From positions 13,081 through 77,080 of the forward strand of contig OZ253504.1 in NCBI GenBank assembly GCA_965262235.1: a stretch of DNA of 64,000 nucleotides, in the 5' to 3' direction. This stretch comes from Dehalococcoidia bacterium (lineage in GTDB: Bacteria; Chloroflexota; Dehalococcoidia; Bin125). Below the pieces are notes generated by a model that was not told the origin of the DNA, ran no database searches, and saw nothing but the letters and a program-made list of their open reading frames with translations. Of the stretch, positions 58,958-63,922 are shown piece by piece. A program made the translations under genes and the position numbers. How positions within the stretch are numbered: the first letter of the stretch is position 1; each line of letters starts with the position of its first letter.

Positions 58958-59371
58958 ATGACCAAGCAAGGCGTCGTGCCGGACAGCTTCAGTCAGCCGT
59001 TCTGGGATGCGGCGAACGAAGAGCGCCTCGTGATCCAGAACTGCCGCGCCTGCGATCGGTTGCAGCATCCGCCGGCGGAAGCCTGCCGCGAGTGCGGCGC
59101 CACCGATCCGCTCGAGTGGAAGCCCGTGAGCGGGCGTGGCACGATCTACAACTACGGCGTCGTGCATGACTGTCCCGTGCGGCTGCTGCAAGAGAATCAG
59201 CCCTTCAACGTTGCCGTGATCATGCTGGAGGACGACCCGGGGATCCAGATGTTCTCGCACCTGCCCGGCACGCCGGTGGACGACGTGCCTGTCGGCGGGG
59301 CCGTCGAGGTGATCTTCGAGCCCACGGCGAACGGCCAGCTCGTGCCCGAGTGGCGCGTGATTGCTGGCTGA
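58958..59371 (+). CDS. Zn-ribbon OB-fold protein (DUF35)
   Basis: 'CRACDRLQHPPAEACRECG' rubredoxin-like zinc ribbon plus an OB fold. Typical partner of SCP-x type thiolases. Confidence 0.8.
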   Translation: MTKQGVVPDSFSQPFWDAANEERLVIQNCRACDRLQHPPAEACRECGATDPLEWKPVSGRGTIYNYGVVHDCPVRLLQENQPFNVAVIMLEDDPGIQMFSHLPGTPVDDVPVGGAVEVIFEPTANGQLVPEWRVIAG

Positions 59372-59424
59372 TCCCGATCCACCTGACAGCCCACCTGACT
59401 GCCCAAGGGCAAGGAGTACGCGTA

Positions 59425-60747
59425 ATGACGACACCAACTGCACCGGATGCGATGTACCGCAACGACGAAGGGCTTGGTATTTGGGAGCACCGCGGCCAGG
59501 TCGCCGCCGTCGGCGTCGGCCACGCGCCGACCAACCGGCGCTGGGACGGCCGCGCCGAGACGTGCGTCGGCGCGATCAGCATTCAGGCGCTGCGGCAGGC
59601 GATCGCCGACGCCGGCGTGGCGCCCGAGCAGATCGATGGTCTGGTGGTCGTCCCCCACACCACGACCGGCGCGTTCTGGGAGGAGGGCAAGCCGCTTCCG
59701 ATGGACGTGATCCAGAGCTTCCAGCAGACGGAGGACCCGCTAGACGGCGTCGCGAAGATCAGTACCGAGTGGCTGCTGGCGAACATGCCGGAGCTGACCA
59801 ACGTGCAGTTCACGATGTACGGCCCGACCTGCATGTCGAACGCGCTGAATGTGACGGCTCAGGCCGTGGGCGACGGTCTGACCCACACCTGCCTCGTGGT
59901 CAAGAGCTGGCACAACTTCGAGGGCCGCTACTACCAGGGTGGGGCCAACGCCGGGGAGGCCCTGCCCGGCACCGCCGCCATGACCCAACTATGGGGCGGT
60001 CCCGCCTCGTATAGCACGGCCCTGCAATTCGCGGAGTATTGCCGGAAGTACGGCAAGACGCACGAAATGATGGCGCCGTTCATGGAGAATTCCCGGCGCA
60101 ACGGGCTGATGTTCCCTGAGGGCTACTGGGCGCAGCACCGGCCCGAGGAACTTGGAGCAGAGGACTATCTCGCGTCGCGCTGGATCGCGAAGCCGGCCAA
60201 CCTGTTCGACAACGACATTCCGATCATGATGTCGGGCGCCTACCTCTTTTCCACGGCGGAGCGCGCGGCGGACATGAACCAGAAGCCGGTCTACATCCTC
60301 AATCACGCGTCCAGTAACACCCGGTCGCGCAGCCTGGTTCCCACGCTCGATGAGGTGGAAGCCGACACCGCGCGCACCGGTCGGAAGATCTACGAGGGCG
60401 CGGGGATCAGCGCGGACGATCTCTCCTTCGAGAACATGTACGACGGCTTCTCGCTGTTCCATCAGTTCCACCTGGAAGGGCTGGGCTATCGCGGGATCAA
60501 GTTCGGGGAAGCACTGGACTTCTACCAGACCGACATCAGCATCGAAGGGCCCAACCCGGTCTCGCCCAGCGGGGGCAACGTCGGCAGTGGCCGCAGCCGG
60601 GTCTGGATGCACACGGACTGCATTCAACAGCTGCAAGGCCGCGCCGGCGCGCGACAGGTCACTGGCGTCAAGCCGGAAGTGGCGGTCTCGGGTGGGCCGA
60701 TGCCGCTCGGGGGGAACTACACCGTGTGGAGCGCCAGCCCCGACTAG
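59425..60747 (+). CDS. Thiolase-like protein (SCP-x/non-specific lipid-transfer thiolase type, DUF35 partner)
   Basis: ATG at 59425 preceded by AAGGAG. 440 aa with thiolase-like N- and C-terminal halves 'GPTCMSNALNVTAQAV' and 'SPSGGNVGSGRS'. Confidence 0.7.
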   Translation: MTTPTAPDAMYRNDEGLGIWEHRGQVAAVGVGHAPTNRRWDGRAETCVGAISIQALRQAIADAGVAPEQIDGLVVVPHTTTGAFWEEGKPLPMDVIQSFQQTEDPLDGVAKISTEWLLANMPELTNVQFTMYGPTCMSNALNVTAQAVGDGLTHTCLVVKSWHNFEGRYYQGGANAGEALPGTAAMTQLWGGPASYSTALQFAEYCRKYGKTHEMMAPFMENSRRNGLMFPEGYWAQHRPEELGAEDYLASRWIAKPANLFDNDIPIMMSGAYLFSTAERAADMNQKPVYILNHASSNTRSRSLVPTLDEVEADTARTGRKIYEGAGISADDLSFENMYDGFSLFHQFHLEGLGYRGIKFGEALDFYQTDISIEGPNPVSPSGGNVGSGRSRVWMHTDCIQQLQGRAGARQVTGVKPEVAVSGGPMPLGGNYTVWSASPD

Positions 60748-60773: not shown

Positions 60774-61127
60774 GTGGTGGTTCTGATCAGCTTCGACATC
60801 GACGGCACGTTAGAAGTCGGCGATCCGCCGGGCGTCTTGACGATGGACATGGTCCGCCTGGTACGCGAAAAGGGCTTCCTGATCGGCAGCTGTTCCGATC
60901 GCACGCTGAGCGGTCAACGCGCCCTCTGGGCCGCGCACGAAATCGAGGTCGACTTTGTTGTCTCGAAGCACATGTTGCCCGACGTGAAAGCCAAGTTTGA
61001 GGCGGACGTGTATCTGCACATCGGCGACCGTGAGGACCTTGACCGCCAATACGCCCTCAAGGCGGGATTCGAGTTCCTTTGGCCGCATGAGGCTGTGGTT
61101 CACCCCCACTTCGATCCGGAGCCCTGA
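60774..61127 (+). CDS. Small HAD-superfamily-like protein
   Basis: GTG start. 'LISFDIDGTLEV' is HAD motif I (DxDGT). 117 aa. Confidence 0.5.
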   Translation: MVVLISFDIDGTLEVGDPPGVLTMDMVRLVREKGFLIGSCSDRTLSGQRALWAAHEIEVDFVVSKHMLPDVKAKFEADVYLHIGDREDLDRQYALKAGFEFLWPHEAVVHPHFDPEP

Positions 61128-61547
61128 CCGGTCGGCCGGCCGCGGCTCTGGGAGGCCGACGGCCCGAAGCGGAGTCGCCGAATCGAGGCTGGGTTGGCTG
61201 ACTTGGTTGGCCGAGTTGGTTTGTTAAGGCTTACTCGGAATCGGATAGTCCCAATTGACGCCACATTGCGAGCACCATCGCCTCAGCCAGACATCTCCGC
61301 TCGCGCTCTTGTCTCCGACCTCCGCGTGGATCTGTCCTCCGCATCGACACGGCCGGGGAAACGCCTTCAAGCAGCCACCGCAGCCCGGATCGAGCTGATG
61401 TGTCTGGAGGAACTGTGGGTGCATAGACAGGCTCATCCGCGATCACCTCTCCGGCCACGGCGCGTGCAGGGTGCACAGTTTAGTACGCCGCCTGCGGCGC
61501 TCATGTTCCCAGCAGGCTGCTGAAAAAATCGGTGCGCTGGCGCTCTC

Positions 61548-61698
61548 TGCTCTCCCCCCGCAGAGCGGGGGGAGATGCCGAAGGCAGAGGGGGGCCGCGT
61601 CCCAAGCTCAGCAGTGTGGTGGTACCTGGTCAGACGGGGCCGGGGCCCCCCTCTGTCACTCCGTGACATCTCCCCCCGCAAAGCGGGGGGAGAGGGGA
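61548..61698. repeat. REP/MITE-like structured intergenic element, full copy A (about 150 bp, nested inverted repeats)
   Basis: Terminal hairpins 'tctccccccgcagagcggggggaga' and 'tctccccccgcaaagcggggggaga'. Inner inverted pair 'cagaggggggcc' and 'ggcccccctctg'. Shared 'gatgccgaag' and 'ctctgtcactccg' blocks. Confidence 0.55.
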
Positions 61699-61823: not shown

Positions 61824-62789
61824 CTAATTGCGCGGCGCGGGGCGCTCGACCAGGGGTGCCTCGCGGAGCCGCAACTCGAAGCTCAGCGAGTCTGGCAACA
61901 GGCACTCCGTGGCCGTGCAGGCCTGTAGTGTGACGCGTCCACGCACGACCAATTCGCCGGCGTCCACGGTCATGAACGTGACCGGCACGGAGACGCGGAT
62001 CTCGCCGCTGTACACGTGCAACTGCTCGTCGAGCCCCTCCACGTGGAACGGCTTCGGCGTCGGCCAGCGCGGGGCGCCGACCGTCACCCGATCCGGGGGG
62101 TCGATCTCGATGTCCAGCGGCACGTAACCGACGGGGATGGGACGCCCGTTGACGTGGTAGCCGGGAGCGATGGTCAAACTGACGGTCAGCCAGAGCCGCT
62201 GCCCCCACGTATAGCTGGATGCGTCGAATTGGGCCTGGAGCTGGACCACATCGGACGCCACCTGCGTCTGGGGCCCGTCGTGCGTGGCGGCGATCCCGAG
62301 GACCTGTTGCAGGAGTCCCGCGCCGGTGTCTCGCTCCCGGTAGCTCTCGTAGAAGTGTTTCGCGGCCACCGTGCCGTCCGAGTCGAGGACGAACACGCCG
62401 GGATGCGGGATGCCCTCGACGCGCCCACCCGCCGCCTCGTTGAGGATGCCCAGCTCGCGAATCAGTCCGCTGCCCGCATCGCTGAGCAGGGGATAGGTGA
62501 TGCCATGCCGCTCGGCGAAACCCGCAAGCACGTCCGGAGGGTCGTAGCTGATCGCATACAGGGCGATCCCCTCGGACTCCAGGTCCGCCGCCACTTTTTG
62601 CAGCTCCACGAGCTGCGTCTTACAAAACGGTCACCAGGCAGCACTGCGATGGAACACGACCAGCGCGCCCCGGCCAGCCCGATCCGCGATCAGATCGATC
62701 ACCTGCCCTGCCTGATCTCGAAGCTCCCACGACGGGAATGCCGCTCCCGTCGGGGGCCCAATCCCCATCTCCACCTGAATGTCAGCCAT
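61824..62789 (-). CDS. Candidate selenoprotein: Prx-like thiol:disulfide oxidoreductase (AhpC/TSA_2-type) fused to a DsbD-alpha/DsbC-like domain, with in-frame TGA (62631-62633) at the first CxxC position
   Basis: 'ALVVFHRSAAW-[TGA]-PFCKTQLVELQKVAADLESEGIALYAIS' is the W-C-P-F-C motif with TGA in the Cys slot. The frame continues unbroken into the tracked ORF 61824-62609. The C-terminal domain carries 'IAPGYHVNG' and 'LQACTATEC'. Confidence 0.5.
62600..62616 (-). promoter_or_regulatory. SECIS-like hairpin immediately downstream of the in-frame UGA
   Basis: On the mRNA: UGA, then 14 nt, then GCAGCUC-GUG-GAGCUGC (7-bp perfect stem with apical loop GUG, loop G about +24 from the UGA). A possible lower UUUU/AAAA stem with a 7-nt bulge. 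Confidence 0.35.
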
Positions 62790-62849
62790 GCCAGAGCCTC
62801 CAGAATTCTGCGGCAACTCTAGCAGTGTGCTGGAAAAGTCCGCCTGTTG

Positions 62850-63025
62850 GCGCTCGCCGCGCTCCGCCCGCTTTGCACGGGGAGATGCCGAAGCCTGCCC
62901 TTGCGCAGGCAGGGGGCAGAGGGGGGCTGCAGCGCGCATCCCGGTGGGAATTCGCATCTGCCAGTACGGAGACGGCCCCCCTCTGTCACTCCGCAACATC
63001 TCCCCCCGCCGAGCGGGGGGAGAGT
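62850..63025. repeat. REP/MITE-like structured intergenic element, copy B (left hairpin degenerate)
   Basis: 'ggagatgccgaagcc...cagaggggggc...ggcccccctctgtcactccgcaacatctccccccgccgagcggggggaga', aligned to copy A. Confidence 0.55.
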
Positions 63026-63145
63026 CTTTCAGAGCTTCCCTGGCGGAGGTTGTTGCGCAAGCTCTTGAGCGCCCCTCCTCGTGCACTGACCCTGGCGCCC
63101 GCTGGTATGCTCCGCCGCCACCTGAACGAGGAGCGAGGATTGCCG

Positions 63146-63922
63146 ATGGCAGACCGATTCGAGGGTAGGGTCGTCGTGATTACGGGGGCCGCCGGGGGCA
63201 TCGGCCGGGCGACGGCCGTCCGCTTCGCATCAGAGGGCGCCCGCATCCTGGCCGTTGATTTGCCGGACTCTGAACTGGACGAGACGGTGGCAGCGGTACA
63301 CCGGGCCGGCGGCCAAATCGCGACCCATCCAGCCGATGTCACCGTCGCCAGCGAGGTCGACGGGTATGTCCAGGCGGCACTCGACCAATTCGGGCAGATC
63401 GATGTGTTCTTCAACAACGCGGGGATCGAGGGCTGGGTTGGACCGCTGCTGGATTACCCGGAAGCCGAATTCGATCGGGTCTTCGCTGTCAACGTCAAGG
63501 GCGTCTTTTTCGGCTTGCAGGCTGTGGGACGAGTGATGCAGGGAACAGGCGGCGGAGCGATCATCAACACGGCCTCGGTCGCGGGGCTCCAAGCCAGTTC
63601 CCAAGCGGCGGCATACGGGGCCACCAAGAGTGCGGTCGTGAGTTTGACGAAGTCCGCGGCCATTGCCCTGGTCGGCGACGGCATCCGCGTCAATGCCGTC
63701 TGTCCCGGTCCCATTGAGACGCGCATGATGCGTGCGATGGAGCGAGGCGTGAACCCGGATGACCCGGAGGCCGTACACAGGAATCTCGCCGCGTCGACGC
63801 CGATGGGACGCTACGGCGAAGCCGATGAGATCGCAGCGATGGTGGCCTTCCTCGCCAGCGAAGACGCCTCGTACATCACGGGCGGCATTTACCCCGTCGA
63901 CGGCGGGACTCGCGCACGCTAG
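63146..63922 (+). CDS. SDR family oxidoreductase (classical short-chain dehydrogenase)
   Basis: 'VVVITGAAGGIGRA' (TGxxxGxG), 'NNAG', catalytic 'YGATKSAV' (Y-x3-K) and 'PGPIET'. ATG at 63146 after GAGGAGCGAGGA. Confidence 0.9.
   Translation: MADRFEGRVVVITGAAGGIGRATAVRFASEGARILAVDLPDSELDETVAAVHRAGGQIATHPADVTVASEVDGYVQAALDQFGQIDVFFNNAGIEGWVGPLLDYPEAEFDRVFAVNVKGVFFGLQAVGRVMQGTGGGAIINTASVAGLQASSQAAAYGATKSAVVSLTKSAAIALVGDGIRVNAVCPGPIETRMMRAMERGVNPDDPEAVHRNLAASTPMGRYGEADEIAAMVAFLASEDASYITGGIYPVDGGTRAR

Follow-up and report, generated by a model that had tools for sequence, protein, structure and literature searches.

A predicted selenoprotein of Dehalococcoidia joining a UxxC redoxin domain to a DsbD-alpha-like domain

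Frame translation of the minus strand of the window, by which we mean the whole 64-kb stretch of Dehalococcoidia DNA analyzed here, gave a reading frame that runs from an ATG at 62789 to a TAG at 61826..61824 and is uninterrupted except for one internal stop. The translation reads MADIQVEMGIG...HRSAAW, a stop, PFCKTQLVELQKV...PAPRN and the terminal stop, and the sole internal stop is the TGA of codon 53 (62633..62631, minus strand). Based on the sequence and on the conservation of its column, this TGA was taken as a selenocysteine (Sec) codon, U53 of a W-U-P-F-C motif. The frame is then a complete predicted selenoprotein coding sequence of 321 codons (61824..62789, minus strand, TAG included). 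The codon of Cys56, the putative resolving Cys of the U-x-x-C motif, is located at 62624..62622 on the same strand. A Shine-Dalgarno-like GGAGG, read from the sequence, was found 8 nt 5' of the ATG (62801..62797, minus strand). The start position is common to the window and four of its closest relatives (L001-L004), and the codon at this position is GTG in these four.

The codon-53 column was examined in 80 species-representative loci, which cover more than 10 phyla and protein identities down to 33%. TGA was present at 76 of the 80 loci and TGC, encoding Cys, at the other four (L043, L056, L075, and L079). The taxa conserving the TGA include Dehalococcoidia, Thermomicrobiales, Methylomirabilia, Rokuibacteriota, Latescibacterota, Bryobacteraceae/Terriglobia, Binataceae, and Gammaproteobacteria, as well as others. 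Among database proteins, P0089, P0092, P0094, and P0116 have WCPYC at the Sec motif, and the Cys homologues are full-length single chains. The TGA is thus aligned with the Cys of Cys-containing homologues, at the first Cys of the C-x-x-C motif, where the sequence-only reading had placed it.

Among close relatives, dN/dS was 0.11-0.17 for codons 1-52 and 0.18-0.21 for the region after the TGA, and the purifying selection on codons 1-52 matches that on the remainder of the gene. These values bear on the reading of the gene as a dead one, in which a TGC or TGT codon was mutated to TGA or misread in sequencing. In its favor, the gene is everywhere broken up or shortened in automatic calls, and the window is without sel genes. 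However, the TGA is kept in close relatives and in 76 of the 80 loci, whose protein identities go down to 33%, the 52 codons upstream of it are under purifying selection, and a hairpin downstream of it covaries (see below). The probability of a pseudogene or a sequencing error is therefore negligible, and we regard this reading as already refuted by the comparative data.

A second reading assumes two products, i.e. a 52-residue peptide ending at the TGA and a separate 261-residue protein initiated at GTG 62609. An open reading frame with this GTG start does exist (61824..62609) and matches the database entries P0001-P0049. On the other hand, the 261-residue form would begin beyond the first beta strands of the redoxin fold and have none of the U/C-x-x-C active site, and the database entries begin variably, with M or V at differing residues, as artefacts would. 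In addition, the full-length Cys homologues are single chains, and dN/dS is alike on both sides of the TGA. Two separate products are accordingly very improbable, and a single chain read through codon 53 is preferred.

Downstream of the TGA, folding predicted a hairpin, GCAGCUC-GUG-GAGCUGC, with a 7-bp stem (62616..62600, minus strand) and the apical loop GUG (62609..62607, minus strand). Counted from the UGA, the hairpin begins at 14 nt and its loop at 21 nt, and the sequence of the hairpin encodes part of T-Q-L-V-E-L-Q. Published constraints on bacterial SECIS elements specify a loop of 3-9 nt that has a G within its first two positions and then G or U, a stem of 4-16 bp, a spacing of 16-37 nt to the UGA, and an energy of -7.5 kcal/mol or lower. 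The window hairpin agrees with all of them (GUG loop, 7 bp, 21 nt, and -10.1 kcal/mol for the hairpin core folded alone). Across orthologues, the 17-nt core folded alone was weaker than -7.5 kcal/mol in 18 of 76, and the 71-nt stretch round the window hairpin was not more stable than its shuffles (z = -0.23). Single-sequence folding energy was therefore dropped as evidence for a SECIS element, being not significant against shuffles, and covariation and comparative data were relied on instead.

In the alignment of 76 sequences, 93.8% of the stem cells were paired, compared with 12-43% when the partners were slid. Compensatory changes on both sides were observed in five of the seven stem pairs, e.g. 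CAG/CUG to CAA/UUG at synonymous sites; the covariation score was reached by none of 500 shuffles, and G25 of the loop was invariant. The peptide Q-L-V-E-L-Q is kept in the Sec forms and not in the Cys forms, from which the complete 7-bp stem with its G-U loop is also absent. A search of Rfam returned no match to the hairpin, neither with the gathering threshold nor with E values up to 10 allowed, and Rfam may hold no such bacterial SECIS model. The hairpin of bacterial SECIS geometry noticed 14 nt after the UGA in the sequence-only reading is thus real, fits the published model, and covaries. Together with the conservation of the TGA and the coding constraint, this bears out every testable element of the proposal that the gene encodes a Sec-containing redoxin.

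The machinery for Sec insertion was searched for by tblastn with E. coli SelA, SelB, and SelD sequences as queries against the window and all loci, and only two loci, L060 and L072, gave matches. In L072 the orthologue adjoins selB, selA, and selD, with a tRNA-Sec at 140 nt; in L060 it adjoins selA and selB, with a tRNA-Sec at 3 kb. The two loci are unrelated and belong to two phyla other than that of the window. ARAGORN detected no tRNA in the 64-kb window, and tRNA-Sec, selA, selB, and selD were found neither in the window nor in the 20-kb loci of its closest relatives (L001-L008). Three of these relatives (L001, L003, and L004) are chromosomes of Dehalococcoidia MAGs that are syntenic with the window, and their redoxin proteins are 91-95% identical to that of the window. 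They carry genes of two further known selenoproteins, an AhpD-like CxxU gene (PF02627) and a UGSC gene (PF24696, 4.5e-41), both with conserved TGAs, which begin 63 nt past the position matching the end of the window. These two genes, like the linkage in L060 and L072, lend indirect support to the presence of a Sec machinery in the source genome.

The linkage in L060 and L072 also bears on a reading in which selenium plays no part in readthrough of the UGA, the codon being Trp in a 4/25-like code or being suppressed by a near-cognate tRNA or by Sec machinery charged with Cys. Gene callers did assign W to the codon in the full-length entries P0050, P0051, and P0054. However, the homologous position is the Cys of a C-x-x-C redox motif in the Cys forms, the loci span many phyla in which TGA is a stop, and only the TGA forms have kept a hairpin of the SECIS type with its conserved G-U loop. 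The tRNA-Sec and selAB(D) genes beside the gene in the two loci point in the same direction. Other coding regions interrupted by TGA were sought in the window in two scans, neither of which gave a convincing candidate; the first is a weak negative, since its GC3 filter missed the true gene. Readthrough without selenium is hence highly unlikely, and reading of the UGA as Sec remains the preferred interpretation.

The domain content of the protein was analyzed with Cys placed at codon 53 for the Pfam search. Residues 15-143 (62361..62747, minus strand), which include W-U-P-F-C and the invariant Pro130, matched AhpC-TSA (PF00578) with an E value of 4.5e-26 and 91.7 bits against a cut-off of 26; the Redoxin family was matched at 1.3e-15. 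AhpC-TSA_2, the family named in the sequence-only reading, scored 17.3 bits, well short of its cut-off of 27, and has to be replaced by AhpC-TSA as the best family. Among solved relatives, AhpE was the best sequence match (3.4e-13), and ResA, DsbE, and StoA were also sequence matches of the redoxin domain. The AlphaFold model of a natural Cys orthologue, P0094, is a confident two-domain unit (pLDDT 89.6, pTM 0.85). Foldseek matched its N-terminal domain to BCP/PrxQ (1e-11), and in the PDB it returned single-domain peroxiredoxins only, with no two-domain precedent.

U53 aligns with the Thr of the peroxiredoxin TxxC motif and with Cys74 of ResA, C56 with the peroxidatic Cys45 of AhpE and Cys77 of ResA, and the invariant P130 with the peroxiredoxin catalytic Arg and the cis-Pro of ResA. 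When aligned to AhpE, the protein retains nothing but the Cys of the peroxiredoxin signature P-x-x-x-T/S-x-x-C and the catalytic Arg; the motif Pro corresponds to Arg48, the Thr to Sec53, and Arg116 to the invariant Pro130. Selenols react fast with peroxides, and the best N-terminal matches, in sequence and in fold, are the peroxiredoxins AhpE and BCP/PrxQ. The selenoprotein could thus be a true peroxiredoxin, that is, a peroxidase, for which the second domain would serve only in docking or regeneration. In contrast to AhpE and BCP, however, whose peroxidatic Cys position is occupied by C56, the window protein has Sec, Pro, and Arg in place of the catalytic Thr, the catalytic Arg, and the motif Pro, respectively, and its Pro lies at the cis-Pro position. 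Moreover, the W-C/U-x-x-C motif is of the ResA, TlpA, and CcmG type. A peroxidase is on these grounds unlikely, and a thiol/selenol-disulfide oxidoreductase is favored. The window protein shares with ResA/TlpA/CcmG the place of the W-C-x-x-C motif and the cis-Pro before the same strand; it differs from them in having Sec for the attacking Cys, a scaffold nearer to the peroxiredoxins, and a fused second redox domain, and in having neither signal peptide nor membrane anchor.

This second domain, at residues 183-305 (61875..62243, minus strand), is a DsbD-alpha-like Ig-fold domain that matched DsbD_N (PF11412; 9.5e-14, 51.9 bits against a cut-off of 25) and the N-terminal domain of ScsB (6c29). 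Its Cys pair lies in Q-A-C291-T-A-T-E-C296 (61902..61919, minus strand); C291 and C296 are invariant in an alignment of 58 sequences, and ScsB-alpha has its Cys pair at the aligned positions. The fusion had been called unusual, but it is the norm in the subfamily. DsbD-alpha exchanges disulfides with thioredoxin-fold partners such as DsbD-gamma, DsbC, and CcmG. The window domain resembles DsbD-alpha and ScsB-alpha in its Pfam match above the cut-off and its aligned Cys pair, whereas it is attached not to a DsbD/CcdA membrane domain but to a putative thioredoxin-fold partner.

Inspection by eye revealed no signal peptide or hydrophobic N-terminus in the Chloroflexota forms, that of the window included, and signal-peptide-like N-termini in the forms of Acidobacteriota and Binatia. 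The window protein thus lacks the extracytoplasmic setting and the DsbD/CcdA membrane linkage that are typical of DsbD_N, and a DsbD-alpha-type domain without a signal peptide represents a non-classical setting. Since it has no signal peptide, the protein would act in the cytoplasm in this Dehalococcoidia lineage, unlike DsbD and ScsB, whereas the orthologues with signal peptides (Acidobacteriota, Binatia, and others) would act outside it. Clustering of the open reading frames within 5 kb at the 80 loci yielded no conserved partner gene, no conserved CcdA or DsbD gene nearby, and no pointer to an electron donor or substrate; the largest cluster was made up of open reading frames antisense to the gene, and the next largest of generic SDR paralogues. 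The neighbors in L081 were a luciferase-like monooxygenase, a thiolase, and others.

The Prx-like thiol:disulfide oxidoreductases are defined in the literature by pfam00578 and a UxxC motif (PMC9312934, PMC13188914). The window protein has PF00578 above the gathering score and its predicted Sec in U-x-x-C, and it is 36% identical (E 3e-44) to JCVI_READ_900765, a "Prx-like 1" sequence of GOS Dataset S1. This read carries RSADWUPYCKAQLVELQ and the start of a DsbD_N domain, so that a member of the redoxin-DsbD_N subfamily from an ocean metagenome had already been listed as a selenoprotein in 2008. The suggestion that the gene belongs to a known bacterial selenoprotein class was therefore confirmed by the PF00578 domain, the U-x-x-C motif, and homology to a published member. 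Judging from these features, the gene is a member of the described Prx-like thiol:disulfide oxidoreductase or "Prx-like 1" family (UxxC/UxxU), with which it has in common the PF00578 domain, the Sec position, and the prediction of a redox protein. The type sequence of the family is WP_010940744.1. As published, the family is broad and defined by domain and motif only. The DsbD_N domain is absent from the published accounts consulted here, in which a text search for "DsbD" returned one unrelated TsoB entry only, and no NCBIfam model reached its cut-off for the window protein.

Taken together, the best explanation is very probably that the gene encodes a 321-residue selenoprotein in which UGA 53 is read as Sec by way of the SECIS element, and which acts as a thiol/selenol-disulfide oxidoreductase with two redox domains. 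Sec would be inserted in the source organism by the standard bacterial route, in which the hairpin within the coding sequence, as its features suggest, would recruit SelB and Sec-tRNA(Sec) to the ribosome at the UGA. The N-terminal domain would combine a peroxiredoxin-type fold with an active site of the thioredoxin/ResA/CcmG type (W-U-x-x-C and the cis-Pro position), Sec replacing the exposed, attacking Cys, and the C-terminal Ig-fold domain would contribute its own conserved C-x4-C pair. Most likely, a disulfide (selenenylsulfide) passes between the two centers of the single chain. The fusion would thereby join partners that act in trans in the relay from DsbD-alpha to CcmG/DsbC; the direction in which electrons flow through the fusion protein, and its substrates, are presumptive.

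A wider reading, which we offer tentatively and consider somewhat doubtful as a whole, is that the redoxin-DsbD_N proteins form a distinct, undescribed subfamily marked by three features. These would be a highly conserved SECIS element of its own in the codons for T-Q-L-V-E-L-Q; a self-contained selenol/thiol relay between the fused redox centers; and two topologies, cytoplasmic in Chloroflexota and exported in Acidobacteriota, Binatia, and others. In this Dehalococcoidia lineage, the gene would in addition be part of a small cluster of three selenoprotein genes, in which the redoxin, AhpD-like CxxU, and UGSC genes would serve one redox pathway.

Most database proteins of the subfamily are gene calls of 255-272 amino acids beginning just past the TGA, and in a few full-length ones the TGA was translated as W (WWPFC). 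Essentially all public entries are thus truncated at the Sec codon or carry a false Trp, and because no NCBIfam model covers the protein either, the active site of a widespread redox enzyme of soil and groundwater is missing from the databases. The gene is real and routinely misannotated. The find is sound but not surprising, because the family has already been described as a selenoprotein family, and it leaves the existing picture of Sec decoding unchanged. It provides a natural one-chain fusion of a DsbD-alpha-type relay domain and a thioredoxin-fold partner, with Sec and Cys variants available as controls. Dehalococcoidia MAGs have been reported to be among those with the richest selenoproteomes (PMC13326102), and the protein is a well-supported addition to the selenoproteome of this class. 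The sequence OZ250140.1 is the chromosome of a MAG that is approximately 93% identical in nucleotide sequence.

The gene occupies 62789..61824 on the minus strand as one continuous frame of 321 codons, in which an in-frame TGA (codon 53, read from the sequence at 62633..62631) is the sole interruption. A GGAGG sequence lies 8 nt 5' of the ATG, and the residues around the TGA are H-R-S-A-A-W-[TGA]-P-F-C-K-T-Q-L-V-E-L-Q. In a Pfam run on the protein with Cys put at codon 53, AhpC-TSA (residues 15-143, E 4.5e-26), Redoxin (E 1.3e-15), and DsbD_N (residues 183-305, E 9.5e-14) scored above their curated cut-offs, whereas AhpC-TSA_2, to which the redoxin had been assigned in the sequence-only reading, scored under its own.

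A search of 5.8 billion proteins yielded 239 relatives at E <= 0.001. Most of the 120 relatives listed had 255-272 residues and covered about 80% of the query, and the short ones were gene calls starting directly 3' of the TGA. The full-length relatives P0050, P0051, and P0054 read W-W-P-F/Y-C (WWPFC/WWPYC); this Trp is the gene caller's translation of TGA, as under an assumed alternative genetic code. The public gene calls for this subfamily (P0001-P0120) are systematically wrong, most of them beginning past the Sec codon. A scan with one genome per species gave 229 encoded relatives, from which 80 loci were kept. TGA was found at the Sec column in 76 of the 80 loci and TGC in the other four (L043, L056, L075, and L079), and more remote full-length database entries carried W-C-P-Y-C. 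These results confirm the earlier placement of the TGA at the first Cys of the motif. The TGA forms, whose identity to the window protein ranged from 95% down to 33%, were distributed among Dehalococcoidia, Thermomicrobiales, other Chloroflexota, Methylomirabilia, Rokuibacteriota, Latescibacterota, Terriglobia/Bryobacteraceae, Binataceae, Gammaproteobacteria, Myxococcota, and others. The window is syntenic with a Dehalococcoidia MAG chromosome (OZ250140.1, L001) at a nucleotide identity of about 93%. Among the window gene and its six closest relatives, dN/dS was 0.11-0.17 (informative pairs) for the 52 codons 5' of the TGA and 0.18-0.21 for the 268 codons 3' of it. Both parts are therefore under selection as translated sequence, and this rules out a pseudogene as well as two genes split at the TGA.

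The hairpin GCAGCUC-GUG-GAGCUGC was located at 62616..62600 (minus strand) by sequence reading and folding. In the window sequence alone, the 71-nt stretch around it showed no extra stability over shuffled sequence (z = -0.23); a single sequence therefore proves nothing about the hairpin. Covariation was examined in an ungapped alignment of the 76 TGA-containing sequences, with columns 18-24 and 28-34 as the stem. Pairing was seen in 93.8% of the stem cells, compared with 12-43% when the 3' partners were slid by 1-3 columns. Both sides changed in five of the seven stem pairs, and the observed covariation score was reached by none of 500 column shuffles. Several of the compensatory changes were synonymous, CAG (Gln) with CUG (Leu) becoming CAA with UUG, and CUN (Leu) with GAG (Glu) becoming UUG with GAA. 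Protein conservation alone cannot account for these changes. The loop was GUC, GUG, or GUU in 75 of the 76 sequences, and G25 was invariant. The published bacterial SECIS model has a loop of 3-9 nt with G within the first two positions and then usually G or U, a stem of 4-16 bp, a UGA-loop distance of 16-37 nt, and an energy no higher than -7.5 kcal/mol (PMC13188914). The 7-bp window hairpin, which had been described only as SECIS-like, agrees with this model (3-nt GUG loop, spacing of 21 nt, -10.1 kcal/mol) and covaries across the 76 sequences. All four Cys forms lacked Q-L-V-E-L-Q and the full hairpin, as is expected where a SECIS lies inside a coding sequence. The sequence evidence indicates that the initial proposal was right in substance: the selenoprotein gene is real, it has been mis-annotated, and its SECIS is of the canonical bacterial type. 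We infer with high confidence that Sec would be inserted by SelB at the SECIS-marked UGA.

No tRNA-Sec or sel genes were found in the 64-kb window or the closest loci. Indirect evidence comes from two sides. On the one side, the selenoprotein gene is physically linked to Sec-insertion genes in two unrelated phyla. In a Terriglobia MAG (L072, 11066-15706), the orthologue is followed by tRNA-Sec, selB, selA, and selD, all within 5 kb, and in a gammaproteobacterial MAG (L060, 3669-7061), selA, selB, and tRNA-Sec lie 3 kb upstream of the orthologue. On the other side, three complete Dehalococcoidia chromosomes syntenic with the window (L001, L003, and L004), whose redoxin proteins are 91-95% identical to that of the window, contain two more TGA-interrupted genes, starting 63 nt past the window end and adjoining the SDR gene beside the redoxin gene. 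They are located at 8770-8288 and 8263-7736 in L001 (minus in the locus, plus in window orientation; window 64000 = L001 8836), at 8217-7183 in L003, and at 6953-5920 in L004. The first is AhpD-like/CMD with C-S-V-U (PF02627, 1.9e-13), and the second belongs to the UGSC family with W-G-H-U-G-G-C (PF24696, 4.5e-41), scoring 105 bits against the NCBIfam 'UGSC family (seleno)protein' model, under its 125-bit cut-off. Selenoprotein families of both kinds, AhpD-like/CMD CxxU and UGSC, are known, and the TGAs of the two genes are kept in all three loci. Within about 3 kb, then, this lineage has retained no fewer than three Sec-type genes. The redoxin, AhpD-like, and UGSC genes form a small three-selenoprotein-gene cluster. 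In the literature, the largest bacterial selenoproteomes include those of Dehalococcoidia MAGs (PMC13326102).

The N-terminal domain was nearest to peroxiredoxins (M. tuberculosis AhpE, 3.4e-13; BCP/PrxQ by Foldseek). In the AhpE alignment, Cys56 fell at the peroxidatic Cys position, but Sec53 replaced the conserved Thr of T-x-x-C, Arg48 the conserved Pro, and the invariant Pro130 the catalytic Arg. Thus, although peroxiredoxins are nearest in both sequence and fold, their catalytic signature is absent, and without the Thr and Arg that peroxide activation requires, action as a peroxidase is less likely. Against B. subtilis ResA, which was also an independent PDB match, Sec53 and Cys56 aligned with C-x-x-C and Pro130 with the cis-Pro. 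The two alignments thus point to a peroxiredoxin fold with a thioredoxin-type W-U-x-x-C/cis-Pro active site, in which Sec is predicted to occupy the attacking-Cys position. The C-terminal domain matched DsbD_N and carries an invariant Q-A-C-x4-C pair, with which the Cys pair of the ScsB N-terminal domain (6c29) aligns. For P0094, a natural Cys orthologue, AlphaFold gave a confident model of each domain and of the full chain (pLDDT 89.6, pTM 0.85). DsbD-alpha domains swap disulfides with thioredoxin-fold partners such as DsbD-gamma, DsbC, and CcmG, and the simplest interpretation of the function would therefore be a fused two-centre redox relay. In it, the redoxin (U-x-x-C) and the Ig-fold domain (C-x4-C) would exchange a disulfide or selenenylsulfide, which would be handed on to a substrate or received from a donor. 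Judged by eye, signal peptides were absent from the window protein and other Chloroflexota forms (window and L001-L045), and signal-peptide-like N-termini were present in Acidobacteriota, Binatia, and several other forms (L046, L052, L056-L059, L061, L063, L065, L068, and L070-L078). By this inspection, the subfamily has two topological versions.

In the 2008 study of the GOS ocean metagenomes, a family of 225 selenoprotein sequences was named 'Prx-like 1'. One read in its Dataset S1, JCVI_READ_900765 (...RSADWUPYCKAQLVELQ...), extends into the DsbD_N start (...TPGPNMHVYAPG...) and shares 36% identity with the window protein (E 3e-44); the subfamily is therefore already on record as selenoproteins. 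Both the selenoprotein family of the window gene and the use of Sec in its lineage were already known. No mention of the DsbD_N fusion was found in the papers examined on the Prx-like selenoprotein family, and no NCBIfam model captures the window protein. The fusion had been considered unusual; it is instead the normal architecture of the subfamily, PF11412 being present in nearly all of the 120 listed relatives (239 matched). The gene is of value for putting the annotation right and as a ready-made natural fusion in which a DsbD-alpha/redoxin relay can be studied.

The neighbouring plus-strand genes are a divergently transcribed SDR-like ORF (62738-63922, named by eye from the sequence) and, from the Pfam list of the syntenic L081, a 117-residue ORF without a Pfam match (60774-61127) and a thiolase-like gene (59350-60747). 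No neighbour was conserved across the loci, and none of these three is kept beside the orthologues of other phyla. Two direct copies of an element of about 190 nt, a long G+C-rich palindrome, bracket the gene at 61511-61697 and 62821-63024. They have a common stretch of 51 nt with 92% identity and an identical 20-mer (chance expectation 0). Several close relatives among the nearest do not align over the repeat stretches, a pattern suggestive of a small mobile element of the MITE/REP-like type.
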